Source: Amoebophrya sp. A120 (lineage: Eukaryota; Protista; Dinoflagellata). Taken from it: 64,000 nucleotides of DNA. The stretch is taken from the NCBI GenBank assembly GCA_905178155.1, contig CAJINV010000005.1, positions 5,665,379 through 5,729,378 on the forward strand, written 5' to 3'. Shown here piece after piece: positions 12,301-59,310 of this stretch; the first letter of the stretch is position 1, and each line of letters opens with the position of its first letter. The position numbers and the translations under genes were made by a program. The notes under the pieces are model-generated. The model did not search any database. It was not told the origin of the DNA and worked only from the letters and a program-made list of their open reading frames with translations.

Positions 12301-15300
12301 GCAGAAGTATCGTACTCGTGGTAATTGCAGATATGCATCACAAATTTTTTTCTCAAGGTAAATCAGCATTACAAATTTCATTTCTCATTCTCATGCTGAG
12401 GAAATTTGTAATGCATTTATACGAGTGCGATACTTTTGCAGTTCATAGCACCACCTTCTCGACGTCCTCTTCCTCCAAAAAACTTGCAAAAGTCGCTTCC
12501 TCCCCTGGGCCGCTGCGGAGTTGTGCGGGCGGCCGGAAAAATTATATACAGCCGAAGACGTCGGGGTCAGCGCACACCAACAGCAGTGGGACGACGAGTG
12601 TTGCCGGCCGCGGTCCTGGGGCAGCTGTTCTTTCAGCTGATGTGCGGAGCAAACAGAAGAACGTGGCTTTTTCAACAGCAGGAGCGACGGGCGGAGCACA
12701 TCATCAAAACGACGCGGCGGTAATACCTTTGCAGGTCTCGTCAGAAGGTGTATTGGATTGCTCACCCAACTACGCTACCAAGGACCCGGAACAAGTTCCT
12801 CCTCCTGCGCATCAAGCTGATAAAAAGCACATGACCGAACAACAGGAAGAATCAAACAGCAGCCACCAGCCCTTGATAAACAACATGAACAAACCCCACT
12901 TACGACTGATCAAATCACACCGCATGGTGGGTTTGTTCACCCTCGTTTTCATCAACACGAAAAAAATCCCGACCTCTGCCATCCACTCTTGCACGAGTTG
13001 CCAACATAAATTAGGCTTCTTCAACGGCTTACTGGGGAACAAAGGGGCCATTTGCGTCCGCTTGACGCTGCAGATGCCCGGAGTGGTACGGACACAAGTA
13101 TTAAGACCGCTCCGCCTCGCGTTTTTCAGTTTCCATCTCCACGCCGGGGAAGTATCCAGGAAAAAACACCCATCCCCATCCAATTTGTCATGCAAAACAT
13201 GCATAATTTGCAGCGTTTTTCATTTTCATGCAAAAAATGGATGCGGATGGTTTTTTCTTCTCGATAGGATGGCTTGAACGCGTATAAACAGAGGCTGAAC
13301 GGCTTGAAAGAGGTGTTCGGGGACAAGAGTTGTATCTCCACTACCCAGGAGGGAGGCGAAGAACACGCCGAAGAGTCGCTGGTGCTCAACCGAGCGTCTG
13401 TGACGTCAGCGTCGGGCAGGACTGTAGGTAGAAGTTCTGGTGTGGTCCAGCAAGGGGCACCAGGGAGCTCAAACAACGGCGAGGGTACTCAAACAACTGG
13501 CAATCCGTTGTTTGAATACGAGCGGTCATGTGACTATCGCAGGAAAAAGCGTTAACGTTAACGGATGAATTTTTTGTATATGCAAACACGCATGCCTATG
13601 CGTGCCATTGTCATTGCCGGAAAAAATGGAACTTGTATTCGCCATTTTTGCGTAGCATGTAATGTAGTAGAGAAAATGAAAATCATCATGTCATGTCCTT
13701 TAGGCTGAAGACCGTTAATAGCGTTAGCACTTTTCTGTTTGATACTGACTTCGCGTTTTTCAGTGGGGATTTCAATTTCCGCTGTATGCCGGTTAATCAA
13801 GATTATTTGCTGCAGGAGGATCATAATTTTGAAGGAGAAGGACATCTTGAAGGGCACCAGGAGCACGTGCACGCAAGCGGCCCGGGGAGCGAAATTCACC
13901 ATGCTAGTAAAAACCTCCACCAGGTAGATCTTCAGGAAGAGGCCCTTTGCGGCTCCGCCGGTAATTTTTGCTGCTCGAACACCAGTAATTGCTGCTCCGA
14001 AAGCACGTTATCAAAGGAGACGGTAAGTGACTTCTGTGCGGTAGGCGGAGCTGGAGGTGGAGCCGCAACGACCTCAAGTTCTATCACAGGAAATAGTGTT
14101 AACGTTAACGGAATTTGTGATGCAGAAACGCATCCCAAAACGTGCCAACCTTTGTCATGCATAGCATGCATACTAGGCAAAATTTGTCATGCATTTTTGC
14201 AATCTATGAAAACCGTTAATGTTGCCACTTTTTCCTGTGATAAGTTCAGGATACGTCACATCGTCGTGTGACGAGGAACAGTCCTCCTCTTTACGACAAT
14301 GCACAACTCCCTCTCCCCATCATTTGTCATGTAAAATACCAAGTCCACCCTTTCCCCTTTTGCGCGGCTTGCATGACAGATTCCGGAAGCCGAAACAGCT
14401 CTAGAATCGGTCCCCCTTTTGTCATGCAAAAGCTGTATGTATGCCACGACTTGCGTTGCTGCTAGCTTATGCCATTCAACAAATGAGGGGGAAGGGGAGT
14501 TGTGCACTCTCATAGCCCTCTCTTCAGGATAACGACAGCAGCTGCAGCTCTCGTTTCACACTGCGGAATTACAGCACGGCAAAGTTTTTATCGCAGCCGA
14601 GATTTTCATCTGTAGCGCTCCAGAATCTCAGTGATGTGGAGCAGGAGCTAGAGCTACACTCTGCGGGTGCGGTGAATCATGCTGCACAACAACCTCGTCT
14701 CCCGCCTCTCGCGGCTGTGGTGCAGAAGAAGCACTACAAAGACGATGATAAAGAAATCGAAACGCATCCAGATCCACCACCAGCTCACCAGCACGAGCAG
14801 TCCTTGCGCGACGATGAAAACCGGCCAGGACGAGTATCCTGTGCAAAAGTATCGTATTCGTATTGCAATTATGCATTACAATTTTTTTCCGAAAGCTAAA
14901 TCCGCATTACAAATTTTGTTTCTCATGGAAATCGAAATTTGTATTGCATTTATACGAGTACTACGATACTTTTGCAGTTCATAACGAGTAGCAGGTGCCA
15001 AGAACTCAACAGAGGCAGCCGCAGCCAACCCATCTTCTGCAGACCCCCGGGCAGTGGAGGATTTTGATTTCGCATTTTTTCACGAGCTTTTTCACTGCGA
15101 GCCGGTGATTACCCCCGTTTTGAGCTCCTGGCACAAAAACTACGGGAGCAGCAGCTTTAACGACAATCACAAGAGCGCAGAACTTGTCCACAAAATCACA
15201 ATGCACGACGAGCAAGCGTTGCAAAACTTCGAAGCCGAAGACGAGACGCTGGTGAAAATCGTGGTGCCAGACTGGGTAAGCATTGCAAAAGTAGCGTTAT

Positions 15301-19560: not shown

Positions 19561-19786
19561 CGTTGCCTAAAAGACAACCGCCTGAAAAATGACAATAAAG
19601 TAGATCCTGCATTTAACTAGCGTGATGAAATGCTCTGACAGGAGAGATGATGGTCCGGCGCCGGGCGCCTAGTAATAACCTGACAGGAGTACTAGAGATG
19701 AGGAAGCTATGCTCTGACAGGAGAGAAGATGAAGGGTCAATGACAATGAAGCGGCTCTGGTAGAAATACATGGATCAACAACCAGA

Positions 19787-20490
19787 ACTTTTTGTCTTTG
19801 CCTCAGCCGTTCTGCCGCCTAGGAGGGAATCGCTCCTCACCCGTGGGGAGGCGGTTTTTTTGGTTTTTGCGGTCATTTCGCAAGCAGCAGACGCTGCCCA
19901 ATTTTCAGAAATTGCAAGACTTTTTGTCTTTGCCTCAGCCGTTCTGCCGCGTACGAATCGCTCCTCACCCGTGGGGAGGCGGTTTTTTTGGTTTTTGCGG
20001 TCATGTCACAAGTAGTCGACGCTGCCCAATTTTCGGAAATTGCTAGACTTTTTGTCTTTGCCTCAGCCGTTCTGCCGCGTACGAATCGCTCCTCACCCGT
20101 GGGGAGGCGGTTTTTTTGGTTTTTGCGGTCATTTCTCAAGCAGCAGACGCTGCCCAATTTTCAGAAATTGGAAGACTTTTTGTCTTTGCCTCAGCCGTTC
20201 TGCCGCGTACGAATCGCTCCTCACCCGTGGGGAGGCGGTTTTTTTGGTTTTTGCGGTCATTTCTCAAGCAGCAGACGCTGCACAATTTTCAGAAATTGCA
20301 AAACTTTTTGTCTTTGCCTCAGCCGTTCTGCCGCGTGCGAATCGCTCCTCACCCGTGGGGAGGCGTTTTTTTTGGTTTTTGTGGTCTTTTTAAAAGCAGC
20401 CGACGCTGCCCAATTTCCAAAAGTTGCAAGATTTTTTGTCTTTTCCTCCGCCGTTCTGCCGGTTACGAATTGCTCCTCGGCCGCGGGGGT
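19787..20490. repeat. 128-bp tandem satellite, about 5.5 copies
   Basis: Unit starts at 19787, 19919, 20047, 20175, 20303 and 20431; high identity, degenerate at both ends. Confidence 0.92.
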
Positions 20491-20890
20491 GCGGTCCTAC
20501 AATGACAATGGGGGCGCAACTGTAGAGCTCGGTTTTAAGTGGTATCGTTGTAGGGGTGCTTATTACTGAGTGCGACCGACGTGACACTGGAAGTTAAATA
20601 CTACTAACACCAGAGCTACGCGCGTCATCAAGATCCCAGGTCGTGACACAAGAGCGATCACCTTCGCGAACAAAAGTCTGTAGTCAAGACCCAGCAGAGA
20701 GGGGAAAGAAGCAGCCGAGTCATCTGCCCAATGCTCCTTGTCGTCCCAGGGCCGCGCAAAAAAGGCCGAAAAGGCCGGGAGTTGTCGCTCTGGCGCCTAG
20801 AGGTGGGCCGCCGGCCGCTCCGGCGCCAGTTTGCCGTTTCCGGACCCTTTTCGGAACCCCCCACCCTGTTCATTCTTGAAAACCGCACAA

Positions 20891-35700: not shown

Positions 35701-36622
35701 CACAGGCACTGCGATTCCGGGAATGGTTGGCGTGGCGAACAACTACACGCTACGGAGAAAGTTCGGCATTCAAAGTGCGCGAACAGCAATCGAGAGAATC
35801 ACTATCGACTACCTAGGGCACAAGATCCGGATGGGGCGAGACGAGCCGGGCGAAGGAGTAGAAAAAGGGAACACGTACCGGGCTCGCTTCCCAGACGGGC
35901 GCACCGACCACCACCTGATCTACGGCAGATTGTTCACGGTCTCGGCGGGTGCGCAAGGCAACAGGCGGATGCAGCGCAGGACACTAGCCAAGCAGTGGCT
36001 CGAAATCATGGCGCGCGCGCAACTCCGGCCGGACATGACACGCAAGCAGTGGCACGAGGCGGCTACGCTCTACATTCGCAAGATTGAGGAGCAAGAGCGC
36101 CTGGCGGCGTACGCTGCGGATGGAGCAGGAAACGTCGAGAAGCGGCGCGACGAGCTGCTTGCTAGTCATGGCGTCAACGCAGGTGCGAGCGAGATACGGC
36201 TGCGGAAGAACGTACACGAAGAGGGCGAGTTGATCGCCAGCCACGCTGTTATCTCGCAGTACCGATGCCCGCACTGTTTTGTGCGTTTTCCAGACGGGGG
36301 CAGTGGCTTCAAGTCACACAAGACTAGGTGCTCCAAGGTCGATTATAGTGGTGTAGATTTTGATAATGTCATTTGTATAAGGACCTATGCAGCAGGACGA
36401 ACCCAGTTGCCATGGGGCAACCGTTGGCATTGTAAAAAGTGCGGCACTACTGGCACTGAAGGCAAGGCTACTAGTGGGCAGGGCGTTCATTGTGCATTGA
36501 AGTTGACGCAGCATGCTCAGACGTGTGACCCCGCCCAAAAGAAGGGGAGGCGGCAGGACGAGGTCCTGCAGTATATGGCTGACTTGCAGGCGTTTGATGC
36601 TGTCAACCCTATTGCTGTCTAG
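32774..36622 (+). CDS. AP-endonuclease / reverse transcriptase polyprotein with C-terminal zinc fingers
   Basis: APE motifs LTQNC, GGDFNS, TWRHPATGRWYEIDY and TDH; RT motifs NYRAIAV, QRGFR, LIDFKKAF, GMKEGGPSSP and LFADD; CPHC..H..C and CKKC..H..C. Alternative start at 32828. Confidence 0.95.
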   Translation: MLLVVISLCFLLVQHQRVMGGRRDPTRIRRPHRACNQPVAPGDWVFVLTQNCQRANFRYLEGVDQSAPLQQVQQAEKVRGVFQHIAANKAKVALLSDVQWSGARGAHIKRYEFTHGQHYVYGGGRVAIVLHKSILFAADGKSLIRPVVKFFGPRIMALFIRGTWFAVGYQPSDTVADFAELGQFLLWREKLLFATGTSSIIFGGDFNSAVSQLPRGPEDEEAGAAAAIGSAPLLEPPANPRPGHNNMRFAIDNMLCIPDTFKSIHRRGTWRHPATGRWYEIDYFYTSRQVHFGNVKTIQPKFLTDHRGKRMAVKLGLSQKDKREIRLRVMTITPSPPYEALRRDETAQTAFAAETDANLRKEQQNGGSSLASRWEKFTTVVANSATAVVPANQERGAQQYPPWLNVRKFREYKNEKEDLLYSRFLAADANERQQYNRRLRAIEKDYRAVEKLDFEDYIDRIADECQAEYGQCGRIDYARLRRTGVIFEPTAGARVRKAIPFTVEDAKKHFSKLMLRTAEVPQGFQEALERNLDQLPESVDPMWGIPDEGEIAHCVKQMKDCALGVDQIHIAHIKHLGDDSWDFLVNLVQDCFRTRTIPDAAHLVRMNALHKGKNLNPRLLDNYRAIAVATFLSKLCETILQKRLKHYLERIGFYRETATQRGFRSDCSTADLVMMLQFIADQTRTVVRESILDELVLVLIDFKKAFPSVIRELVYRILRRAGVPGTNVEFLAHFHDKATFYIMVDREPSEEWKATRGMKEGGPSSPDGYGILSEIMFRELARRLNGIKLATTGDFLSKLAAFTDEQNINPAAVRKVVALLFADDATLPTTLREAPMVESTIKDVATTFGQEVHPDKTERLLLQGPHFHYPGPRQKDGTPPIPPGFEEKVKVVGCELSTYHSAGVCLERHLKKARGAWAEWKPILLRARGRINYFKRGSLIKSNVLSHVYYNAAVRLWNERSYQEINVFINKMLRTITGTAIPGMVGVANNYTLRRKFGIQSARTAIERITIDYLGHKIRMGRDEPGEGVEKGNTYRARFPDGRTDHHLIYGRLFTVSAGAQGNRRMQRRTLAKQWLEIMARAQLRPDMTRKQWHEAATLYIRKIEEQERLAAYAADGAGNVEKRRDELLASHGVNAGASEIRLRKNVHEEGELIASHAVISQYRCPHCFVRFPDGGSGFKSHKTRCSKVDYSGVDFDNVICIRTYAAGRTQLPWGNRWHCKKCGTTGTEGKATSGQGVHCALKLTQHAQTCDPAQKKGRRQDEVLQYMADLQAFDAVNPIAV

Positions 36623-36770
36623 TTCCTAAACACGATGCTAATGCAACTTTTTTGAAAAAACTTGCTTTCTCAGTTGTTCAGAAAAAATCTCCGGTGCGTG
36701 TGTTGTTGTTCAAAGAAAATGTTAGTTTGATGATTCCAATTTGTGCGCCCATTTAAGCAAGATCTGACGC

Positions 36771-36850
36771 GTGGCGCACACACCCACGCTTGTAGTGGCG
36801 CACACACCCACTACGACTACATAGTGGCGCAAATACCCACTCCCTGTAGT
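36771..36850. repeat. Three copies of (TA)GTGGCGCA(C/A)A(C/T)ACCCAC in the LINE inter-ORF spacer
   Basis: Seen directly in sequence. Confidence 0.75.
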
Positions 36851-37039
36851 CCGTCCATGGTTCTGCTCTTCTCTTGTTTCTTCTCTGTCACTGGCCTACT
36901 GCATGTTGTTTGTTGATCGCTTGCAAATCTCGTTTTCCTGCACCCTAGCTAAAATTACTGCTGTATCTTCACCTGCTGTTGTAAGTATCTATTCCCCACC
37001 GCTGCACGACACAAAAAATCGTCTTCTCACCGTACGAAG

Positions 37040-37648
37040 ATGCAGCGTCGTGTTGAACGCATCGAGAAAGAACGATGCTTGATGGTGCAGTTCAACTCTC
37101 CGGAAATCCGCTGGCCGCGGAAAGACAATTCCCCAAATGGTGACTTTTTGACGAACTTCGACAAGGAGCAGAAGAAGACCTTCCTCCGCCTGATGGGTAC
37201 GCACTTCCAGGGTGCCCAGCCATCTCCCAAGAAGATGGAGTACCAAACCAAGGACGACGGATCGTCCGAGCTCACGGAGCTGCAGGACGACTGGTCCGAC
37301 GCCCAGAAAGCCGACTTCACCGAAAAGAAGAATGCTTTTGTCGAACTGTGGCGGTCGATTGCGGACGCCCCGGAGTTGGTCGAGTACATCAACTGGAAAA
37401 ACAACAACTGGATCCAGATCGTGTTTCACCTCGGCGAGCATCACAGTAAGGTGATGGATTTGGCCCGTGTTGTCGACAACAACCCCTACCGCAAGTACTT
37501 CAGTCGTGGTCTGAAGCTGAAGCCGATGCAGATGGGTAAGCCGAAGGATGGCGACAACGCTGGCAACGGCGGCGCCAATGGTAACGTCAAGAAGAAGGGC
37601 GGCAAGAAGGGCAAGGGGAAAAACGGGAAAAAGGGAAACGGAAAGTAA
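37040..37648 (+). CDS. 202-aa LINE-internal downstream ORF with basic K/G-rich tail (putative RNA-binding protein)
   Basis: Strong C/G third-position bias, no interruptions, lies between the RT stop and the (CAAAT)n tail; C-terminus KKKGGKKGKGKNGKKGNGK. Confidence 0.75.
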   Translation: MQRRVERIEKERCLMVQFNSPEIRWPRKDNSPNGDFLTNFDKEQKKTFLRLMGTHFQGAQPSPKKMEYQTKDDGSSELTELQDDWSDAQKADFTEKKNAFVELWRSIADAPELVEYINWKNNNWIQIVFHLGEHHSKVMDLARVVDNNPYRKYFSRGLKLKPMQMGKPKDGDNAGNGGANGNVKKKGGKKGKGKNGKKGNGK

Positions 37649-38522
37649 TGACATGATGACGCTAATTATGTCTACCTGCCAGTGCGTGAATCTCATCTAC
37701 ACTTTCTCCGACAAAATCAACCACGCGATAACGACTACCAGCAAGCACGACAGTCCTGTGCGTGATTTCGCTGGGGCGCATGTTTGAAGATTATGAAGAT
37801 TGAGAACTGGAAGAAATACATGCGTTCACAAATGAACTCCAATCACGTAATGGAGTGATGCAAACACTGATGGTGCTGCCTGGTACTACTTCAGCCAGGA
37901 GCACAAGCTGCTTGACACCTGCAGTCAAGAGCTACGACAGACAAACGCTTTGAATTACGTGCTACGCACGGCAAACAGACTGTATGTGTGCAAATCAAAT
38001 CAAATCAAATCTCACCTCGGAAAAAAAGCAGCGAGTAGAAGATCAAAATCCTCAGTGCGAAATCTTCGATGAGCCGCATTTCAAGTTTTTCCTTGTTGAT
38101 GTGGTCTACTCCCCATGACTTTTGAATTGCTCAAGCTATTCCCTTCATCGTCCTACAACAGTAGAAATGCAAGCAGCCAGATCCACTATTCTATCGCTTG
38201 ATATTGTCCACTTCTTCTTCATCCCATCGAGTTGTTAATAATAAGTAGAATCTACTCATTGCACAGATCGATTAAAACTGAAATTATTTTTACAAGAACT
38301 TGAATCCAACATCGTGTGTGCCTGTAGCGTAAAGACTTCTGAGCTGTGGTACATTGATTCTTCTACTACAATTGCCCAAGAACTAGAACCCCTCCATCAA
38401 CTACAACTCGCTTCGTAGCTTCCGGCTTGCAAAACCAAAACAGACCGTCTCTGACTACGAGCCAAAGAACTACCGAACATAGTCATAGATTAGATTCGAA
38501 GTAAAAATCGTCCACAAGAAAA

Positions 38523-41500
38523 ATGCTGACGTCCTTGTTCCTCCAGCCACTTGTGTGGCTCTTTATTACGACCTCCCCCGACCCGAATTTCTATGTTTGG
38601 GCAGCAGTAGCAGCAGCAGCAGCGTCCTCGTCCGGGGCAGTTGAGGACGCCCTCGTGGACGTCGAGACGACAGCTGCGCGCGGAAAAAGCAGGAGCGGCC
38701 GGGATGATCGTGCTAGCGGCTCTCGAATTCCTCGCCCCCGTATTGGTAGGAAAGAAATACCCAGTAAGAGTCGTACTAGAAGCAGCAAGAGCCCACTTTT
38801 GTTGACTCATAGTACCAGCATCTCCAAGAAAAACGACCTCCATGGAGCGCAAGAAGGGCTGCCCGGCACCGTGGCGCGTAGTGTTGGCAAAGTCACTTCG
38901 TCTTCTTCAAAGTCGCCTTCTTGTACGACCCCTGCGGCACAACGGGGACGATCCACAGGGCGCGGACCAGCAGCAGCACACGGTGGACCACCAGAGACGA
39001 TCCGCGAAGCGAATACTAAACCGCCCTCGAGCAGAACTACTACAACAATCCAACTGACAATCGGTCTCAGTGGGGACAAACGGCACGAAAAGCTTTATGA
39101 TTTGACAAAAACCACTGTCAATGCCTTTCTCCAAGAAAACGGCATTTCTGGCGCCTACATGGTGAAACTAGAGGGGAAATAAATATTAAGCGAGGAAAGA
39201 GCTGCTGCTAGGTTCTATTTTGAGCAGAACAAGACCTGTTGGCTCGCCACGGACCTGCTGTTCGTCCCGGGACTGCCCGATCAGTACGTAAACTTGCAGA
39301 ACGTTGGTCGGCAAGGTCGAACGGTGATTCTACCGGGAAACGCGACTTTGCAGGAGGCGATGGAAATGTGCGAAGGAGAGAGAAACGCGACCACCGGCGA
39401 ACTGTCAGACAAAAAGAAGCTCTTGTTAGCGACTAGTGCAGCTGCAGCTAGAGCTTGTTTAAATGGTAGCACATCTTCGTGGTCTACAACTTCCGGGTCT
39501 TCCTGTTGTTCCGAAGAGGTGGACCAAAATCCGGCCGAAGATAAGGCAAACGCCACTTCTCCTCCCGTCAGTATCCAGATCCCCGCGGTAAAACAGCGGG
39601 TCGACACGACCGAGCGGCTTTCTCAGTGGGTTGTCCGGTTCTTGTTTCGCGAGCAGAGTTATGAAATGTAAAAGCATCGTACTAGTAGAAATCGCATGAC
39701 AAATTCCCTCAGCATGAAAAATGGAATTTGTAGTGCGGATTTAGGTTAAGAAGGAGATTTGTAATGCATGACTGCGATTACTACGAGTGCGATACTTTTG
39801 CACAGCATAAGAGTAACAGCAACACTGCCTGCTGGGAGACGCTGCATCGCGAGCTGCGGTTGGCCGCTGAGCAGGAACGCGATAATTTTGCTTTGATGGC
39901 GGCAGCAGCTGGGGCTTCTGACGTACATGGATCATCTGCTCGTAGCAGTGCAGTAGATTTTAACAACGACGAGCAAACCGACATTGATAATACTAACACC
40001 CCGCTTCTGGATTTTCACTTCCCAAGCCCCAGAAATCTCCGAACCGAGGCGGAAGAATTCCGCTTTCCGCAGTTCGGCGCGGGTGCTGGATCCTCGAACA
40101 GGAAGCTGATCGACCTGCACAGTGCGAGAGAGGAAGCCGGAGATAACGCACACATCCACCAGCACAACAACTTGGCGCCCCTCCACATCCGCCTGCCACC
40201 CCCGGGCTTGGAAGTAGATCAAGGAGCACGGGGTGCTGGAATGCTACTACCAAGTCGCCCGAAGAACAGTGCGTTACTTATCCCGACGGAATTTTTGAGC
40301 CCACCGGCTGTACGGGGGCAAGAAGTAGATGAGCTGCTCGTGGAGCCCGGAACTTTGGAAGCCATGTTCGTCGAGCACCGACTTTCCTACGAGGATGAGA
40401 ACCATGACAGCGTGTATCTGCTGACGCTTGAACGGGAAGATGCTGAGGAGGAGGCGGAGAACGTCGACGCTTTTGATCGTAGAACAGCCCGGCGAGCTGA
40501 TCGTAGAACAGCCCGGCGAGACCACGCGGGCTGGGTTCAGCCACCTCCAACGCCGGGACCTGATCAACTTCGATTTCCAGATTTGGATTTTGACGCCTGG
40601 CTAGCGAGGAATCTTCCCGCGAAAGGGAAAGGAAAAGCGAAAGCGCTAGATCACCTGACTGAAGACAAATCGATCTCCTTCGACGCTGGGCGGGTTAATA
40701 TGGTCGACCCACAGCATCAAGACGTCGATCCTGTCGAAGTAGGATCTTCACGACCACCCGCCGACGCGTCTACCTTTTTCCCTGCTTTTTCCGACTTGCG
40801 CACGTTATTTCGCGAGGGCGGCATGTTTCACGAACTCCGGAATATCCGAAACCTCGTCTTCGGATTGCCTTTTGCGCCAGCCGGACACGACGAGAACGAA
40901 AGGTTTGAGGCCTACATCACGGCGCAGGATAGAAAAGACTTGCTCTCGACGACGTCCTCGTCCACCTACATTGACCAACAGTACCTGAACGAACTAGTGG
41001 ATGATTTCGAAGAACAGGTAATCCCGACTTTGAGCGGAATGGTGCTCGGCCGAGAACCTCTGGTCTGCCATTTGATCCAAGAGTACCTGACAAAAACAAA
41101 CTCGCATCAACGCCTCGCACTGGAATTGCTGGGGAACTTTTTGGATTTTGTCTTGAAAATAAATGTTGCCGGTACATCATCAACTGAAATTCTTGCCCGG
41201 GAGAACAAGAAACACCTGCTCCGCACGAAGAAGCTGTGCCCCACGAAACTTCCGGTTCAGGCGGGCAAGCCGTTGTTGACGGTTTTTGAAACCGTTTTAG
41301 CGTCGCAACCTCACGGCGGAGAAGACCAAAGTGCGTGGTCGAGGGTGCCCAAGCGGTTGCTGCTTTTGAAGCTTCTCGAGGACAAGCTTTTCGAGGATGA
41401 AGATCATCTGGTGGATCATCCGAAGGAGGGCGAAGTGATGTTGAAATCGACAGGACGAGCAGCGGCGCGACCAGCTAGAGGCACGGCCAGTACTAGTAGT

Positions 41501-44427
41501 ACACGTAGAACTGCTAGAAGGTCTTGCTCTCGGAACAAAGAAGGGCGCAGGAGCTCGAAGATTTCGTCGAAGCAAGGCCGCAGGAACGATCGCAGCCACT
41601 CGACTTCCTCTAGTAGAAAAAGCGCTTGCTCTTCGACAGGAGGTCGCTCGAGCCGCAGCAGCTCCGCAGATGATGCCCGGCAAACAACCGGGAAGAATCA
41701 AACCACTGTTAGTACTACCACCCCATCCGGCTTTATTGCGGCCGTGTCGCCGAAAACCTCTCATCTTGCGGACAAGATGAAAGTCAGCCTTCTACAGAAC
41801 TCCACCGTGGAACAAACATCGCCAGGCACAACTATCCGAGGACTTCCAGCGAGAATGATTTCCAGCCCGTGGGCGAGCACCACGCTCGATCTCAATCAGC
41901 CGGCCATTTGGTTTGCAAAAGCCTGGAGGGGGATTCGGCTATTCCCAAAATTGGAACCGACGAGTGACTACTTCATGCCTGTACGAGAAGCACGAGGAGG
42001 GAAGAAATCAAAGACAAGTTCTACAGAAAGAGCTGCCCAGGAGGGCTTCCTCTCCCAAGTCGACTACTTCACGGAGTTAAGCACCAACGTTTTCCAACGG
42101 TTGCTCGACTCCTCGCCAGATGCGAAAAAACTTTTCGAAACGCGCGGAACAGAGCTGGTTGCAGAGGGCCTGATGGACATGTTTCGCCCGAGGGGAGGAC
42201 GGGGAAGATTGCATCTAGAAGACGATAGTCAGAACCTCCATCAACCAGTTTTCTACTTCGCACACATCTTTTTTCTCAACGTGCTCTTCGCGGATCTGTA
42301 TCCCATCCTCGGCCACGGCCCGGACCCGGCGTTGTATTCCGTTGTGCATAAAAGAAGCAGCCAAGACGTCATTTATTTCAATGAAAAATGCCCTCATCCC
42401 CGAACTTGGGAGCATTTGTATTGCAAACCTTTCCAAATAAAACACTCGCCCTCTTGCATCTATCAACATCACAGGTTTCCAATCGTGAATAGCAAAAATT
42501 TGTATTGCAACAGACCCCAGCAAGAGCGGCGCTTGTCATGCAAGCGATGCGATACACGCCTAGACTCTGCATCAGAAGGATTCATATACATATTCCTTTC
42601 ATGCATGACAAAAAGTTTTCATTTGGCAACTTCGCACCACAAATTTTTGCAATTTCAGGGGTGGGGGGCACTTTTCACTGTAATATCATCCCGGGGGGAA
42701 TCTGTGCGGATTTGCGGCAAAGAGAGCACTTTTGCGACGGAGATCGGGCGGAGATGTTGGCGGGGGATTGTTTCGAGAGTTTTGCGAGTGACGTGGCAAG
42801 GCCGTTGCCGCAGTTCCCAATGGAAATTGATGTAAACCCGCAGGTGGAGAGTGTTGCGCAGATGATGAAAAAGCTGCATTTGAAGGTCAAGGTGGAAAAA
42901 GAAAAGAAGGAAAATGATAAACACAGTTCTTCCTCGCCTTCAGCTGGAGCCGGTGCTAGTGCTTCTTCTTCTTCGGACAGGACGCGTACTACTTGCTCGG
43001 GAACAGGAACAGGATCGGGATTTGCTGCAGCTACTTCGTCTAGAAATAAAATGGGAAGTTGTGGAGGCGTCTCCTCCAGCTCCAGCAGCTCGCCGTTATG
43101 CGGCATTTCTCCCACCAAGAAATCGACCGAACGTGGCAACACGGCCAGAAGCGCCTTTTTCTCGCTTGCAACGACTGTCGCACCGGCTGAAGACGAGAGG
43201 CCGCTTGAGATTCTCGCGGAAGATGAAAAGATGGAGGACGTTGAGGCCCTAGCCAATGACGAAATCGATGGCATGCTTGAGAACCAAGAGGAATCTTCTG
43301 CATCTGACTCCGAGAAGATGAACTACGAGGAACCGGAGCGGTCGGACGAGGAGGATATCGAAGAAGAGCCCTTCGACGACATGTTAGACCTCGGCCCAGA
43401 ACATCCATTCTGGAATCAAGGAAGACCACTTCCCGAGGACGAGCGGATGAATGCCGATGTTGACAGATGGAGAGCGCCTATTTTTAGGCTTCCTTTTCAC
43501 CTCCCGCCCGGCGGTGCAGTCAGCAACAGAACCACGCCTGGCAAAATGTGCGACCAGCTGTATTTCTCCTTGTCCGATGCGAATCTCGACCCGAGGGCAG
43601 GAGCTTCATCTACTTTGCAGCACGTGCTCTACCATCCCACATCCGGAATGCCCGTGCCGGTTGAAGAAGCCGACTTGGAAAATAGCCAAAATCCTCTCCC
43701 CCCACCCTACCACCACCCTTATACCGGAATAGACAACAGCAGTACTCTGCTAAACGCAGCTGAAAATATGCTGAAAAGAGCGGAAGTCTTGCTCCCCTAC
43801 GCTTTTCAGTGGGAGCTGCTGTTTCGCTCGATTCCCGACGTGGTCCGGGACCACCAGCCCTGGGGAAGGAGAAACGCGAGTGGAAAAGAAGTCGCGGAAG
43901 ACGTGCAAGCGAGTGGAAAATTATTGAAGCTGTTGGTGGAGACCGCGGCGCGGGTGGCGAAGGCGGAGGAGGAAAAAAAGCGGGGGGCAAGAAGTTCAAA
44001 AAAATTCGGTGGAAGTAGTAGTAGACGAGGGACATCATCATCATCTTCACAAGAGCACCACGACGACGACGAGGACAACGTCCAGCACCTCAAAAATCAC
44101 AACCAAATCAAGTACTACGTAAGCAGCTTCTTGCACGAATTGTCCGTGGCCGTCAGAGAAACGAGAGACGAAACCAACCTGCTCTGGCGGATTTGTGTTG
44201 CGCCGAGGCTACAGCTTGACAGAGGAAGTGGTAAAGAATCAGGGAAAGCACTACAAGCGCATTTGCCGGAGCACGTTCCGAGGAGGCTGCAGCTGCGGCT
44301 AGACATGCTGAATTTTATCGAAAGACATGTGTTGCAGGATAGAGGAATTGCTGCGGTGTTGATGGACGGGCACTACACAGATTCGTCGGATGGAGAAGTT
44401 GTAGCCACGTTTGCGGGTACTATTTGA
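38523..44427 (+). CDS. Large hypothetical protein with hydrophobic N-terminus, 2 introner introns and one in-frame TAA (39180-39182)
   Basis: ORFs 38523 and 39294 share a frame; joins REQS|NSNTACW and QDVI|PGGICAD restore the frame to the stop at 44427. Confidence 0.65.
39660..39809. mobile_element. Introner, family E
   Basis: Right TIR GAGTGCGATACTTTTGCACAGCATA; repeat AGAGT/AGAGT. Confidence 0.9.
42374..42685. mobile_element. Introner, family O
   Basis: TATTTCAATGAAAAATGCCCTCATCCCC / GGGGTGGGGGGCACTTTTCACTGTAATA; repeat TCATT/TCATC. Confidence 0.88.
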
Positions 44428-44457: not shown

Positions 44458-45733
44458 TATCCTGAGCAAAAGTCTACCCAGGGCATAGTTGTCACGAGAA
44501 AACTTGCTTTGATTTGGTTACCAAATCACCAAAAAAAGCTCACGCATTTGGTGAGCGCCGTAGCATGCGGATTAGCATCTTATCCGTTTCCCCGTGTCGA
44601 GTTATAGACCGGGGCGGTGGAAAAAATCGCATCCCTGTCCTTTCCTTGGATGCGCAGCAGCATGCGGATTAGCTCACGGGCGTGACCCGCGAGGACAGCC
44701 ATACCATGCGGATTCAGTTTTTTTGCAAAAAGTGCCGACTTTTTTGCCCGAAAAAAGCGAAACCCGACGGCACGGCCGTGGTTTGGGTTTCGCCCACTAA
44801 ATGAATCCGCATGCTATGGGCCCCCTCGAGAGATCGGCCCAAACGCGCGAGCCGAAGGGCGCGCCATACCATCGGCAATGTGGGCACAGGCCCCCCCAAG
44901 GGGGGCCATAGCATGGCGATTCGGGCGGGCTTTTTTTTTTGTGAAGTTTTGCGATTTTTTCTGGAAAAAAACAGCAAACACGACGGCACGGCCGTGGTTT
45001 GGGATTCGCCCATTACGCGAATCCGCATGCTATGGGCCCCCTCGCAAGGTCGGGCACAAAGCGCGGGCCGGGGGGCGCGCCATGCCATCGGTTCGGGAAT
45101 GTGGGCCAGATGTGCCCATAATCAAGATGGGCGAGCTTTATGGTCAGGTCTCGCCAGATATTTGACAATATTCGGAAACACAAAACAACCAGAAAGCGAA
45201 CAGATTGCTCGCCCATCTTGATTATGGGCACATCTGGCCACAGCATGCGGGATGGCTCATTTTGGCAACGCGGCGAACTGCTTCCCCGAGTTTGTTTCAT
45301 TTTGGCAACGCATTCCCGATGGTATGGCGCGCCCCCCGGCTCGCGCGTTTGGGCCGATCTCTCGAGGGGGCCCATGGCATGCGGATTCACATAGTGGGCG
45401 AAACCCAAACCACGGCCGTGCCTTCGGGTTTCGCTTTTTTTGCGCAAAAACGTCGTCGCTTTTTGTAAAAAAACTGAATCCGCATGGTATGGCGGTCCTC
45501 GCGGGTCACGCCCCTGAGCTAATCCGCATGCTGCTGCGCATCCAAGGAAAACACAGGGACGCGACTTTTTCCGCAGCCCTGGTCTATAACTCGACACGGG
45601 GAAACGGATAAAATGCTAATCCGCATGCTACGGCGCTCACCAAATGTGTGAGCTTTTATTGGCGATTTGGCAACCAAATCGAAGCAAGTTTTCTCGTGAC
45701 AGCTATGCCCTGGGTAGACTTTTGCTCAGGATA
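44458..45733. mobile_element. Intergenic foldback non-autonomous DNA transposon with inverted arms of about 420 bp
   Basis: TATCCTGAGCAAAAGTCTACCCAGGGCATAG...CTATGCCCTGGGTAGACTTTTGCTCAGGATA; repeat AACTG/AACTG. Confidence 0.93.
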
Positions 45734-54253: not shown

Positions 54254-56638
54254 TTATCCATGGTCGGTTGCCACATGTCGATGGCCTGCTGCAGCTTGTC
54301 GCTCGTACCTTGAAAAGGGGTCCGCGCAGTTCAGCTCGCTCTTCACGTACTCGTACCACGAGCGGCAGCTGTATTCGTGGCACCACATCGCTGCCCGCGT
54401 ACATATGTTCGTTGTCAGCAGCGAGTTGGCCGAGCATTTCACCGCGGCGTACAGCTCGCCGGTGTTGTCCACTCGGGTGAACGTTACCGAGTGGCTGAGC
54501 TCGTGTCGCCACGTCAGCTGCGCCACCCGGATCATCATCGCCTCGTAGTGTTCGATTGTGAGCGGGTGTTTGTAGTGCTCGCTCACGTCCGGGAAGTCGT
54601 ACGTGATTGCCCGGATCTGGCCTGTTCCGGTTATTAGCAGCGCCCCGCCGCATGGTCCGCCCGCCTTGGAGCCGTTGCTGCTGGCGTCCAGGTACAGCCA
54701 GTTTGTTTTCCCGTCGTGCACCTGTGGTTTTAGCACCAGGGGCTTCTGGTTTTTCAGCACTACCTGCACGCCGCGCAGGAGCACGGCCAGCCTGCGGCGC
54801 CGCGCTTTGTCCAGCACCCAGGCGTCGAACCGTTCGTCCGATCCCGTCCAGTCATATATTCCGCGGAATATTTCATTGCCTGCGCGGTAGGCGGAGTTGC
54901 AGACGATGAAGCTGGCTATGCCCAGCACGCGCTGCAGGTCCTTCATTGTCAGGCCTTGGCCCGCTTCGCACTTCTCGACGCAGTGTTTCGTTTGTGTTAA
55001 CGCCCTGTTCATGGAGTCCGCCGTCGGTTCAGCTGTGATTTTGTTCAACTCTCTTCTCCAGAAGTAGTTGATGCCCAGCGCTTTGATGGGGTTGTGCTCA
55101 CAGCTGTTTTGCGACGCTCCGGGCTTGTCGCTTATCACCAGCCCCAGCGTGCGCGCCATCTGGCGGTAGAGTTCTCGGCTAAGCATCAGCCCTTCTCGGT
55201 CCAGGGCCATGTAGTAGCCGTCGTCGATGTATATCACCGCTACCGCGTAGAAGTGGATCAAAATCGACATGCACAGCTCCGCGACCCTGCACCACGATGG
55301 AACGCTGTGCAGGTTGCCCATGTTCAGCACCAGCGCCAAGAAGTACTGGTAGGACATGGTGTGGCTTGACCACGCTGCTACCGGGTTGTGCTCCGGTATC
55401 TCACACCCGACCTGGTGGTAGGCGCCTTTGTAGTCCTCGCTGCCCAGTTCCACCAGCGGTTGTTTCGCGGTGTTGTGCGGTGTCTTTTTTATCGAGTTGT
55501 GCGCGTAGCGCGCTTCCTTTTTCACCCTGCTCACGTAGTCGCGTCCCGTCTTTTCGCCAAAGAAGGAGTCGCTGTGCGTCTGTTTTCTGTTGCGGAATTG
55601 TTCCAGGTGCTGCTGCATTTGCTCATAGACCTCCTTTTTCGAGGTGGTTGCGGGCATTCTGCAGCAGGCTTTTTCCTGTCCGACCGGTGCCATCATGGCC
55701 TGCGTCAGTTCCTGTATGACGCGGGTTCCGTAGAGCTGCAGTTTCTCCAGCAGCACCGAGTGCATGTTCTTCCTGCGCTCGTCCACGATTGGTCGTATTT
55801 TCCGAATTTCCTCTTTCGGAAATATATACGCGGGCACGCAGTGGAGCTGGTGCTCACTGATTTCCATGTTATGCCCGCGCTTGACCATCTGCATTTGTTC
55901 TTCTAGCACCGCGTCCAGTAGCTTGTCTGAGAACCCCTTAGGCTTCAGTTTGCGCAGCGTCACTCCGGCCTCGAAGAACGCGTCGATCTGTTCTTGTTCC
56001 AGCGGTTGCCTGGTTTCGTCGAGGCCCCACACGTTGGACTCGGTCTGGTTCCCGATGGTGGGGAAGCCCTTCAAGATCTGCTCTGGCAGCTTCTTGTCCG
56101 GGTGCCCGATCATCGCAGTCAAACGCCGCATCGCCGGTACGTTCCGCACCTGCCCGCTCTCGCTGACCAGCACGCGTTGCAGGTGCTTGGGCGCGTGTTC
56201 GCGTACCAGCTGGAGTGCCTCGCTCTTGGTCTCCAGCTCGATCTCCTTCAGTATTTCGATTCCTCTTCGCAGGTGGGCTTTCCACCTGCCGGGGTGCTGT
56301 TTACAGAGCTTTGCGTTTCTGTAAAGCTCCTCCCTGATGGTCTTGACCGCTCGGTCCTCTGCGATGCAGGCCTGTACGTAGCAGATGGCTTCGTGCGCCT
56401 GCACCTTGAGCTCCTCTGCCTCCGTCCAGTTCGCCGACGCGTACTGCATCTGTGCGGCCACCGGCGCTTCCGGTGGCGGTAGCTGCAGCTCTGCCGAGCT
56501 GTAGCCGAACCCACCATGCTTAGCGCGCTTAGCACGCGGCATCTGGGTGGCAGTTGGGGTGGTGGTGGGACAAACTTCACGATGTTGCCGCGCCGCAACG
56601 TTCGCGAGGTTCCCCGAGCGGAAACACCAACTAACCAA
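54254..56638 (-). CDS. Reverse transcriptase / RNase H of the DIRS-type group
   Basis: RT motifs KIRPIVD, EDYKGAYHQ, LNMGNLHS and YIDD; RNase H motifs YLDAS, HYEA, RVDN and VKSELNCADPFSR; 5' end abuts the N gap. Confidence 0.92.
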   Translation of the reverse strand: MVSWCFRSGNLANVAARQHREVCPTTTPTATQMPRAKRAKHGGFGYSSAELQLPPPEAPVAAQMQYASANWTEAEELKVQAHEAICYVQACIAEDRAVKTIREELYRNAKLCKQHPGRWKAHLRRGIEILKEIELETKSEALQLVREHAPKHLQRVLVSESGQVRNVPAMRRLTAMIGHPDKKLPEQILKGFPTIGNQTESNVWGLDETRQPLEQEQIDAFFEAGVTLRKLKPKGFSDKLLDAVLEEQMQMVKRGHNMEISEHQLHCVPAYIFPKEEIRKIRPIVDERRKNMHSVLLEKLQLYGTRVIQELTQAMMAPVGQEKACCRMPATTSKKEVYEQMQQHLEQFRNRKQTHSDSFFGEKTGRDYVSRVKKEARYAHNSIKKTPHNTAKQPLVELGSEDYKGAYHQVGCEIPEHNPVAAWSSHTMSYQYFLALVLNMGNLHSVPSWCRVAELCMSILIHFYAVAVIYIDDGYYMALDREGLMLSRELYRQMARTLGLVISDKPGASQNSCEHNPIKALGINYFWRRELNKITAEPTADSMNRALTQTKHCVEKCEAGQGLTMKDLQRVLGIASFIVCNSAYRAGNEIFRGIYDWTGSDERFDAWVLDKARRRRLAVLLRGVQVVLKNQKPLVLKPQVHDGKTNWLYLDASSNGSKAGGPCGGALLITGTGQIRAITYDFPDVSEHYKHPLTIEHYEAMMIRVAQLTWRHELSHSVTFTRVDNTGELYAAVKCSANSLLTTNICTRAAMWCHEYSCRSWYEYVKSELNCADPFSRYERQAAAGHRHVATDHG

Positions 56639-56646
56639 CAGCAGTG

Positions 56647-57461
56647 NNNNNNNNNNNNNNNNNNNNNNNNNNNNNNNNNNNNNNNNNNNNNNNNNNNNNN
56701 NNNNNNNNNNNNNNNNNNNNNNNNNNNNNNNNNNNNNNNNNNNNNNNNNNNNNNNNNNNNNNNNNNNNNNNNNNNNNNNNNNNNNNNNNNNNNNNNNNNN
56801 NNNNNNNNNNNNNNNNNNNNNNNNNNNNNNNNNNNNNNNNNNNNNNNNNNNNNNNNNNNNNNNNNNNNNNNNNNNNNNNNNNNNNNNNNNNNNNNNNNNN
56901 NNNNNNNNNNNNNNNNNNNNNNNNNNNNNNNNNNNNNNNNNNNNNNNNNNNNNNNNNNNNNNNNNNNNNNNNNNNNNNNNNNNNNNNNNNNNNNNNNNNN
57001 NNNNNNNNNNNNNNNNNNNNNNNNNNNNNNNNNNNNNNNNNNNNNNNNNNNNNNNNNNNNNNNNNNNNNNNNNNNNNNNNNNNNNNNNNNNNNNNNNNNN
57101 NNNNNNNNNNNNNNNNNNNNNNNNNNNNNNNNNNNNNNNNNNNNNNNNNNNNNNNNNNNNNNNNNNNNNNNNNNNNNNNNNNNNNNNNNNNNNNNNNNNN
57201 NNNNNNNNNNNNNNNNNNNNNNNNNNNNNNNNNNNNNNNNNNNNNNNNNNNNNNNNNNNNNNNNNNNNNNNNNNNNNNNNNNNNNNNNNNNNNNNNNNNN
57301 NNNNNNNNNNNNNNNNNNNNNNNNNNNNNNNNNNNNNNNNNNNNNNNNNNNNNNNNNNNNNNNNNNNNNNNNNNNNNNNNNNNNNNNNNNNNNNNNNNNN
57401 NNNNNNNNNNNNNNNNNNNNNNNNNNNNNNNNNNNNNNNNNNNNNNNNNNNNNNNNNNNNN
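56647..57461. other. Assembly gap (815 N)
   Basis: Run of N. Confidence 1.
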
Positions 57462-59310
57462 CACCCTTGTGCTTTATTCCATCCACTTCGCAGTCACATG
57501 CCGGGCATATCTGCGTGTTGTGGATGTAGAAGATGCCTTGGTGGCAGTACATCTCGTCTTTCTGCGCCTTGCGTAGCACCGCCGCGGGTTTCCCCTTGTT
57601 CGGGATTAGTGCTCCCGCTTTGTGTTTCTTCTGCACCACCGGCTGTTTCGGAGGCTGCTTTACTGCCGGTTTTTTCTCCTGCCCCGCGGCGTTGTCGTCC
57701 TCTTTCTGAACCAGGTTTCTGTAAGCAGGTGGGAATGCTCCCGGCGCTTTTACCCGCGGTTTCACGTCCAGCAGCTTCTTTTCCAGCGCCGTTCGCGGGT
57801 CCGGCCCCGGCTTCGGTGCGAGGAGCTTGCTTTTCTTGTTTGGCGGTGACAGCGTCTCCATGTCCTCCGCTGTCAAGTCCGTTTTTTGTGCCACCTGCTT
57901 TTTCATCTCCCGTAGCCTCTTCGTTATGCCCGGGCACTGCTCCTCCAGTTCGGAGTCGTTTTCCGTAAGGCAGTCATCGATGCTGTTTTTTAGCAGTGGC
58001 GCCACGTTACGGCTGTAGAGGTGCCCCTTGGGCGGTCGTTCGTCGCCTTGCAGCGCGTACGGCCTGATGGACGAGAGCACCGGGCAGACAGCATCTGGAA
58101 TGCTATCTTTCCACTTTTCGTAGTCGGCGCAGTAGCGGTTGTACGTGGCTAATTTTGTCCATCCGCGATCCATCATCCAGCTTGTCAAGTCGAATCTTGC
58201 GGCGTCGCTGGTCATCGCCCATCTGGCGTACAACGCCGCCGCCCTGCGTGGCGACTGCTGCGTCCAGCCGAGCCGACGCAGCAACGCGCGGCTTTCCGAT
58301 GCTCTCGTGATTGTCTCGCTGCCGTTTCCCCACATTTGTTTCGCGATCGGCAGGTCCAGTCGCGCGTGTTCCGGGTTGTGCAGGAGGCACCAGGTGCGGT
58401 TGATCTGCTGTTTCTCCCCTGGCGGTCGCACCGCCAGGCCTCCGCCGAGGTGAGGTGGTTTTTGTAGTGGCACTGCATCGTGCAGCACCATCCGCTCCCC
58501 GGTCTGCATGAAGCAGTTGCATCCGATCATGATGTCCCTGCCCTGGAATTTTCGCACTTTATCTTTGCCGACCGTCACGCAGAGGACTTCCTGGCCGTTG
58601 TGGACGCGGCGTTTCACGTCCTCCTCGTGTATCTCGTAGATGCTGCTGAAGCGCAGTCCGGTTTGGAGTGCGAAGCACATCTGCGCGAACTGGTTCGGAT
58701 ACAGCAGCTGCGTGACTGCCGGTCGCAGAATTGCTGGTTTGGCTTTGTGCGCTTCATCGCACGTCGCCGCGCGCTGCACGTCCCGCCGTGCAGCCACCAG
58801 CGCCAGCATCTCGTATCCCCACGCCGGCGCGAGGACGTGCCGCGTACTGCCATCCGGTCCTTTCGGGGGTCGGATGCACCGCAGTATCACCTGTCCCAGT
58901 ATGCCGCTCGGGTCCTTCTGCCCCGACCTGGCGAGTGTGAGGCCGTACAACCTCAAGTGTTCCACTTCGATCGCACCCGGGTATACCGGCGGGAATCTCT
59001 TTGCACACCATGCTAGGAACTGGTGGTAGTATTGTTCCCGTTTTTGTAGTGTTCCCGCGGCGTTGGCCAGCAGCCCCAGCTGGTAATCCTCCTCCTGCTG
59101 CAGTTCCATCGCCGCCTGGGCCTGTAGCAGGCCGGAGTACATCCCCGCCATGGTGGTCGCTGCTTGGTGCCCCACCGCGTACGTGGTTAGGAAGCCGGCT
59201 GCTACCACTGCTACGTTCCTCGTCGCCGTCGGTCCCGCTCGTTGGCCCGCTAGCACCACGAGGAGTAACGCAAACGCATGTACGACGTGACCTAGCATTT
59301 CATCTTGCAC
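57462..59310 (-). CDS. Tyrosine recombinase (3' end runs into the gap)
   Basis: LQTGLRFSS (catalytic R), KDK (K), QSPRR (HxxR variant), RGW...YNRY (catalytic Y). Confidence 0.85.

Follow-up and report, generated by a model that had tools for sequence, protein, structure and literature searches.

A spliced-leader-headed LINE of Amoebophrya sp. A120 carries a conserved second gene downstream of its reverse transcriptase gene

A 64,000-nucleotide (nt) stretch of the Amoebophrya sp. A120 genome (GenBank assembly GCA_905178155.1, contig CAJINV010000005.1, forward-strand positions 5,665,379 to 5,729,378), here called the window and numbered from its own first base, was analyzed around a ∼5.5-kb long interspersed nuclear element (LINE). 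The element is headed by a copy of the dinoflagellate spliced leader (SL) and holds two open reading frames (ORFs): ORF A, the reverse transcriptase (RT) gene, and a smaller ORF B behind it. Our reading, which we hold at a probability of roughly 0.6, is that ORF B is a conserved second gene of this element, that it encodes a predicted RNA-binding partner of the RT, and that it is likely expressed from an mRNA of its own, trans-spliced from the spacer between the two ORFs. The parts of the element, in order, are as follows.

32487..32494, + strand: 5' copy of the 8-nt direct repeat (target-site duplication), whose final 3 bases are also the first 3 of the leader
32492..32513, + strand: 5' end of the element, a copy of all 22 nt of the dinoflagellate spliced leader; pattern match, with a unique contig across it
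32514..32773, + strand: 5' untranslated region, from the leader copy to the first ATG of the RT ORF
32774..36622, + strand: ORF A, 1282 amino acids (aa); weakly endonuclease-like N terminus, RT, Cys/His-rich C terminus
36623..37039, + strand: spacer of 417 nt with stops in all three frames; repeats, candidate acceptors and pyrimidine tract
37040..37648, + strand: ORF B, 202 aa; basic N-terminal motif, predicted alpha/beta core (13 to 163), Gly/Lys-rich disordered tail (166 to 202)
37649..37990, + strand: 3' untranslated region (UTR) of 342 nt, within the multi-copy unit; summed depth of 104 in bin 37341-38007 of the DNA-like run X1, RNA-like cover to 37990 and 37995
37991..38010, + strand: (CAAAT)4 tail, 3' end of the element; the unique-flank contig starts at 37982, 29 nt before the tail end
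38009..38016, + strand: 3' copy of the 8-nt direct repeat; exact 8-mer match

The unit is a multi-copy non-LTR (non-long-terminal-repeat) retrotransposon, as its RT, tail, duplication and copies attest. ORF A matches the RVT_1 family at residues 620 to 874 (E value of 1e-11; 45.4 bits against a Pfam cut-off of 29.6), its best matches among PDB sequences are the R2 RT (8.5e-10) and L1 ORF2p (5.5e-8), and it qualifies as a LINE-type RT. The endonuclease-like match to Exo_endo_phos at residues 111 to 299 is weak (E value of 0.002; 18.3 bits, under the cut-off of 24.5); the relative P0001 matches Exo_endo_phos_2 at an E value of 0.007, and remoter RT relatives carry PF03372 and PF14529. P0001 and P0002 are 49% and 45% identical to ORF A, and P0001, P0040, and P0041 lie on contigs of 5.2 to 6.9 kb. 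The RT alignment (A3) retrieved 0 related loci from metagenome contigs. One viral-contig locus (L001), at 26% identity to that alignment, was set aside as unrelated. An Rfam search of 32000 to 38400 returned no RNA gene, the sole match being a subthreshold HgcE within the RT ORF.

Copy number and limits were read from contigs of run X1, which covered 30 of 30 bins of a 20-kb stretch and so behaves as DNA. Its summed contig depth is 104 to 164 across all eight bins from 32672 to 38007 (110 to 164 over the RT, 114 and 104 in the bins of ORF B and the 3' UTR) versus 24 to 30 in flanking bins, and it is 30 and 26 in the two bins next after 38007; unique contigs stand at 21 to 31. The repeated unit is at ∼4 to 6 times flank depth, in its RT part and its ORF B part alike. 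On the left, a unique contig spans 31918 to 32558 with 0 differences, and on the right, another starts at 37982, inside the tail region. Because X1 contigs are built on 31-letter words, these boundaries would have the repeated part begin near 32529 and end at ∼38010 to 38011, so that the multi-copy unit probably ends where the tail ends. The (CAAAT)4 run at 37991 to 38010 is the sole such run across the window, and two matches were obtained in 0 of 100 shuffles. An exact 8-mer at 32487 to 32494 recurs at 38009 to 38016 and brackets the unit; since it overlaps both the leader start and the tail end, the size of the target-site duplication is ambiguous, from 3 to 8 nt. No long direct repeats (LTRs) surround the unit, and neither ORF A nor ORF B has a second copy within the window. 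The element thus has what marks a LINE-type element: several copies, well-defined ends, a tail on the 3' side, and a target-site duplication, with LTRs lacking.

ORF B begins 418 nt past the RT stop (36622), on the same strand. The initial annotation, made from the sequence alone, had proposed a codon-biased 202-aa ORF between the RT stop and (CAAAT)4, and its coordinates and coding-type composition hold: the guanine-plus-cytosine (GC) fractions by codon position are 0.52/0.34/0.76 in ORF B versus 0.42/0.43/0.50 in the spacer. The same annotation had assigned this ORF to the element, 3' of the RT ORF, and had said that its absence from other copies, as in a one-off transduction, would undo the idea. 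We found the opposite. The ORF lies in the repeated unit, with even DNA depth over both ORFs and a right unique contig only from 37982, and a pair of genes in a second strain, described below, agrees.

Eight homologues of ORF B were detected among 1.84 billion representative proteins (E values of 6.8e-24 to 4.1e-4, 31 to 38% identity, lengths of 163 to 285 aa), and a profile search with the ORF B alignment A1 added one further homologue, P0042; a word-based protein search with ORF B as a single sequence gave no match. By these E values, ORF B is far beyond chance. The homologues have in common a basic N-terminal motif placed right at the start codon, six positions are invariant in the family, G74, E115, W124, N148, and K161 among them, and a Gly/Lys(Arg)-rich C-terminal tail is present in 9 of 9 homologues. 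Purifying selection was judged from this protein conservation. No Pfam family matched ORF B at E values up to 0.1, no homologue has a descriptive name in its source database, alignment A2 found 0 loci in metagenome contigs and 0 in viral contigs, and the ESM Atlas returned unnamed clusters only, with recognition under the useful range. The family is previously undescribed.

Linkage to the RT gene extends to another strain. In the Amoebophrya sp. AT5.2 proteome of EukProt, P0002, the nearest labelled RT relative (45% identity), is g4171.t1, and P0028, an ORF B homologue at 38% identity, is g4172.t1. The consecutive numbers suggest that g4171 and g4172 are adjacent genes and that the association of RT and ORF B is old. 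ORF B is not a one-off transduction, because it lies inside the repeated unit and, by gene numbering, is paired with an RT gene in AT5.2. We conclude that ORF B is a real gene of the retroelement and not a neighbor.

Two other sequences at this locus were recorded. An antisense ORF of 235 aa (36989 to 37696, minus strand) is most likely no gene, since the homologues fit only the + frame and its GC values by codon position (0.71/0.36/0.53) are the reverse image of those of the coding strand. The 3' half of ORF B and the 3' UTR (37387 to 37906) also occur as a diverged variant, in which joints skip 37545 to 37728 and 37765 to 37872 and 37742 is followed by 6 additional bases. In the DNA-like run this variant has a depth of 33.9, about what unique contigs show, but the RNA-like runs give it 303 and 212; it may represent a paralogue or a copy of ORF B alone.

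The protein was modelled with a 10-sequence alignment, which gave a mean predicted local distance difference test score (pLDDT) of 78, a predicted template modelling score (pTM) of 0.70, and 98 residues at a pLDDT of at least 90; the single-sequence model reached a pLDDT of 57. Its elements are a strand at 13 to 18, a helix at 42 to 58, strands at 64 to 70 and 76 to 84, a helix at 87 to 108, strands at 114 to 119 and 124 to 129, a helix at 133 to 143, and a strand at 158 to 163. The first six elements of this predicted core run beta-alpha-beta-beta-alpha-beta, the order of the RNA recognition motif (RRM) and of ferredoxin-like folds, and are followed by beta-alpha-beta. The isoelectric point is 9.7, and the tail (166 to 202), predicted to be disordered, holds 12 Lys or Arg and 13 Gly in 37 residues. 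RNA binding, as a partner of the RT, is the predicted role of the ORF B protein.

An ORF1p-like chaperone with a short coiled coil at RVERIEKER had been proposed for ORF B, and here the initial annotation fared less well. The only helix predicted before the first strand covers residues 2 to 10, and at just 9 residues it is too short for a coiled coil. The fold comparison with ORF1p RRMs that had been suggested was run. Foldseek gave no match at E values of ≤0.001 with the alignment-based model, fold searches with the single-sequence model gave nothing, and in a wide structural search, for which a Z score of <8 may reflect a common arrangement, the best Z score (5.0) went to helical fusion partners that are unrelated. 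Among alpha/beta structures, the central RRM of human L1 ORF1p scored best (2w7a_B, Z score of 4.7, root mean square deviation of 4.0, 89 of 99 residues aligned; 2yko_A, Z score of 4.5), level with unrelated rows; a second structural look also peaked at a Z score of 4.7, with many RRMs near 3. A PDB profile search with the ORF B family gave 0 matches at E values up to 10. With no Pfam or PDB sequence match, a fold match at noise, and no coiled coil, ORF1p-like identity does not follow, and the modelled resemblance to ORF1p is a lead, not a result.

A complete 22-nt copy of the dinoflagellate spliced leader lies at 32492 to 32513, 260 nt upstream of the RT start codon, a feature that the initial annotation had left unremarked. 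The 21-nt leader pattern matches 32493 to 32513 exactly (0 mismatches); this is its sole match in the window, where 0.01 were expected. The last 15 nt of the copy equal the relic motif quoted in the excerpted text of PMC12014239 (this and the other PMC articles are cited from excerpts). The copy overlaps the 5' direct repeat and is followed by CATC, with no GT donor. A DNA-encoded leader at the 5' end of a retroposed unit is the mark of leader-tagged retroposed sequences, and from its position the template RNA was leader-capped and the host trans-splices. The absence of GT, the single-depth flank, and post-tail sequence that repeats the 5' flank identify the copy as a relic of capped RNA and not an SL RNA gene. 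These properties fit what is described for Amoebophrya and other dinoflagellates, namely, leader trans-splicing, co-oriented gene blocks, and relic leaders (excerpts of PMC7789003 and PMC12014239).

The spacer holds the signals that had been noted for a second acceptor, and all of them were recovered. A pyrimidine tract at 36861 to 36889 has C or T at 26 of 29 positions, an AG-free stretch from 36850 to 36946, given before as about 95 nt, measures 97 nt, and the AG at 36947 to 36948 is followed by the first ATG at 37040, the start of ORF B. AG dinucleotides occur at 36848 and then at 36947; 36848-36849 and 36947-36948 are candidate acceptors, as is the AG at 36984-36985, and ATGs lie at 36857, 36903, and 37040. 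Splice-like signals of this kind are by themselves not rare. Counted over the + strand of the window, AG-free gaps of at least 90 nt number 28 (one of them the N run at 56647 to 57461), and 26 or more pyrimidines occur in 52 overlapping stretches of 29 nt. Three direct repeats of 17 to 18 nt start at 36771, 36795, and 36824 (span, 36771 to 36841), 90 to 160 nt upstream of the first RNA-like contig start, and could be a protein-binding or promoter-like element.

Contigs from two RNA-like runs, X3 (36929 to 37883 and 37854 to 37995) and X5 (36959 to 37332 and 37310 to 37990), together span the whole of ORF B and the 3' UTR up to the tail. Both runs cover the region in patches where X1 is continuous and have low depth on high-copy repeats, which fits RNA. 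Over the RT ORF they cover 33614 to 33779 and leave a trace in 34673 to 35339, with nothing listed in 36007 to 36673; such gaps are no evidence. Three raw RNA runs under the same species label (X8 to X10) gave 0 reads on 32300 to 38300, an outcome that says nothing about expression. A separate trans-spliced ORF B message is plausible on these grounds.

Several observations weigh against this reading and have to be set beside it. X3 and X5, which derive from a single sample, are called RNA by a tool's guess together with the patchiness of their cover. No leader-bearing loose end at ORF B is among the loose ends listed for the X3 and X5 contigs; Logan contigs are probably poor at keeping a 22-nt leader tip, and its absence then says little. 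The first base of the X3 contig, 36929, lies 20 nt before the proposed AG, and either unspliced RNA contributes or the acceptor must be sought farther upstream; splicing at 36848-36849 would keep the ATGs at 36857 and 36903 in the message. For the protein, the structural matches are within noise, and the Pfam, PDB sequence, and Atlas searches gave no functional support. The adjacency in AT5.2 is read from gene numbers, and the intactness of ORF B is that of this one copy. The SL trans-spliced mRNA that the initial annotation had envisaged therefore stands in part: the leader copy at 32492 to 32513 agrees with trans-splicing in the host, while a leader junction at 36949 was not seen in the RNA-like contigs, one of which starts at 36929.

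The same contigs bear on the strongest alternative, that ORF B is a genuine gene of the element expressed without internal trans-splicing, by reinitiation or internal entry on a dicistronic RNA or from a promoter within the spacer, with the repeats at 36771 to 36841 as candidates. We regard it as unlikely, though it must be taken seriously. The RNA-like contigs show no leader junction, one of them includes 36929 to 36948, upstream of the proposed acceptor, and the three direct repeats precede the start of that contig at a distance of 90 to 160 nt. L1Tc, a LINE of another trans-splicing host, has an internal promoter and unspliced transcripts (excerpt of PMC1874656). Against this, dinoflagellates generally resolve co-transcribed genes by leader trans-splicing (excerpt of PMC7789003), the spacer offers a pyrimidine tract and then an AG after which the first ATG is the ORF B start, and a missing leader in Logan contigs probably says little.

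A second alternative, in which ORF B is a host gene beside the LINE or a recent 3' transduction from one master copy, with no role in retrotransposition, is improbable. No known domain ties ORF B to retroelements, most of its homologues are on contigs of 1.1 to 2.6 kb, too short for an RT gene, and the diverged variant, single-depth in DNA (33.9) and high in the RNA-like runs (303 and 212), behaves as a host paralogue might. Yet the repeated unit and the direct repeat include ORF B, the unit ends at the tail, and the pairing of RT and ORF B recurs in the AT5.2 proteome at 45% and 38% identity, which is too old for a recent transduction. This alternative is largely refuted.

SLACS, CZAR, and CRE of trypanosomatids insert site-specifically into spliced-leader RNA genes. 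That the leader at 32492 to 32513 is likewise part of an SL RNA gene hit by a site-specific LINE, and hence silent on capping of the element RNA, is the least probable of the alternatives: Amoebophrya genomes have a single complete 22-nt leader-like coding sequence each, outside snRNA (small nuclear RNA) clusters (excerpt of PMC7789003), but the copy continues with CATC instead of a GT donor, its 5' flank is single-depth (27.7) and no gene array, what follows the tail is a repeat of the 5' flank and no continuation of an SL RNA, and Rfam places no RNA gene there.

We therefore retain the reading of ORF B as a second gene of the element with its own message and propose how it might work. The element probably sits in sense orientation in a co-oriented gene block, and read-through transcription would supply a precursor. 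A new leader could be spliced at the AG that ends the relic leader, giving a full-length capped RNA that would serve as template and as RT message and would regain the 5' end. Splicing at another acceptor, within the spacer (36947-36948 or 36848-36849), would give a short leader-capped ORF B message. The ORF B protein, with its predicted ferredoxin/RRM-like core and Gly/Lys tail, may coat or chaperone the element RNA, as ORF1 proteins of other LINEs do. Built in this way as two adjacent host genes of a polycistron, the element would not need its RNA-binding gene to come first.

A bolder version of this proposal can be put forward only tentatively. It would have a syndinian LINE lineage live fully on host polycistron logic, with no promoter, trans-splicing at the AG of the relic leader, and an RNA-binding 3' cistron of a new family reached by internal trans-splicing; the short message would itself be retrotransposed, and the lineage would be the machinery behind leader-tagged retrogenes. 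If so, the short ORF B message would share the 3' end of the element and yield ORF-B-only copies, the mirror image of half-L1 elements, and such copies would explain the homologues on 1.1- to 2.6-kb contigs and the highly represented diverged variant.

The surroundings of the element resemble what is described for the genus. ORFs of at least 150 aa are nearly all on the + strand up to ∼54 kb, and 13 of the 14 large ORFs outside the element are without a Pfam match, the exception being a 314-aa ORF at 12333 to 13277 with an Exo_endo_phos2 domain (E value of 9.1e-10). With its co-oriented ORF blocks, mostly orphan proteins, and high-copy inverted-repeat elements, the window fits the published description of the Amoebophrya genome, as far as the excerpt of PMC7789003 goes. 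Short elements with inverted-repeat ends at 27336 to 28002, 39342 to 40008, and 42010 to 42676 have summed X1 depths of 22,000 to 40,000 versus ∼25 for unique sequence; they match the window repeat families D12, D13, D17, I4, and I6 and resemble the introner/MITE-like (miniature inverted-repeat transposable element) elements of Amoebophrya in the same excerpt of PMC7789003. A tandem array at 19699 to 20623 has a 128-nt unit and six overlapping 285-nt copies at 61 to 95% identity, and a large inverted repeat at 44458 to 45733 has 423-nt arms, 93% complementary, with 430 nt between them. A trinucleotide (ATG/CAT) microsatellite occupies 31871 to 31917, ∼600 nt before the element begins. The run at 56647 to 57461 consists of 815 N, and ORFs called across it (56248 to 59298, minus strand) are unreliable.

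L1 ORF1p is laid out as a coiled coil, an RRM, and a C-terminal domain. Like LINE ORF1 proteins such as human L1 ORF1p, ORF B is small, basic, nonenzymatic, and beside an RT gene, and its predicted core starts in RRM element order; unlike L1 ORF1p, it lies downstream of the RT gene, has no coiled coil and no sequence similarity, and carries a Gly/Lys tail instead of a folded C-terminal domain. By sequence membership (Pfam Transposase_22 and relatives), N-terminal coiled coil, and upstream position, ORF B falls outside the L1-type ORF1p proteins. RTE elements have a single ORF, a length of ∼3.2 kb, and a protein of ∼1000 aa. The element shares with that clade an ORF with an RT and, by a weak match, an endonuclease-like N terminus, the lack of poly(A), and a tail of short repeat units, but its second ORF, its ∼5.5-kb unit, and its 1282-aa RT ORF differ, and it falls outside the definition of RTE by a single ORF and ∼3.2 kb.

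Dinoflagellate retrogenes with a relic spliced leader were reportedly described by Slamovits and Keeling in 2008, a study cited in PMC7789003. As in those retrogenes, a DNA-encoded 5' leader shows that capped RNA was reverse transcribed, and its terminal AG can be the next acceptor. Here, in contrast, the retroposed unit is a retrotransposon with its own RT gene, tail, and several copies, and the leader is complete (22 nt) and not truncated. Among dinoflagellate two-ORF LINEs, SymbioLINE-Dnmt of Symbiodinium has as its extra ORF1 a DNA methyltransferase upstream of the RT ORF, and upstream is where the extra ORF lies in the known elements of this kind (excerpt of PMC5890265). Our element resembles it as a dinoflagellate two-ORF LINE with an unusual non-RT ORF and differs in that the extra ORF is downstream and of no known family. 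In trypanosomatids, the L1Tc/ingi elements are LINEs in a host with polycistronic transcription and leader trans-splicing, as here, and L1Tc has a 5' internal promoter plus ribozyme and unspliced transcripts (excerpts of PMC1874656 and PMC3383444); unlike L1Tc, the element described here carries the host leader itself. Our literature search, whose coverage was incomplete, with most subscription journals outside it, and is no proof of absence, turned up neither a LINE in which a conserved ORF follows the RT gene nor a dinoflagellate LINE headed by a leader.

In the textbook picture, a LINE has an RNA-binding gene first and an RT gene second, or has one gene only. A conserved gene placed after the RT gene indicates that this textbook order is no mechanistic necessity where host trans-splicing caps internal cistrons. 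Leader trans-splicing is the general dinoflagellate way to resolve co-transcribed genes (excerpt of PMC7789003), and for leader-tagged retrogenes, retrotransposons are the suspected mediators, with retroviruses not ruled out (excerpt of PMC12014239). Apparently intact, leader-headed, and bounded by a target-site duplication, the element is a candidate for the machinery that generates leader-tagged retrogenes, which are abundant in dinoflagellates. The ORF B family, which has no Pfam domain, name, or matching solved structure, can be characterized as a new type of accessory protein encoded by a retroelement.

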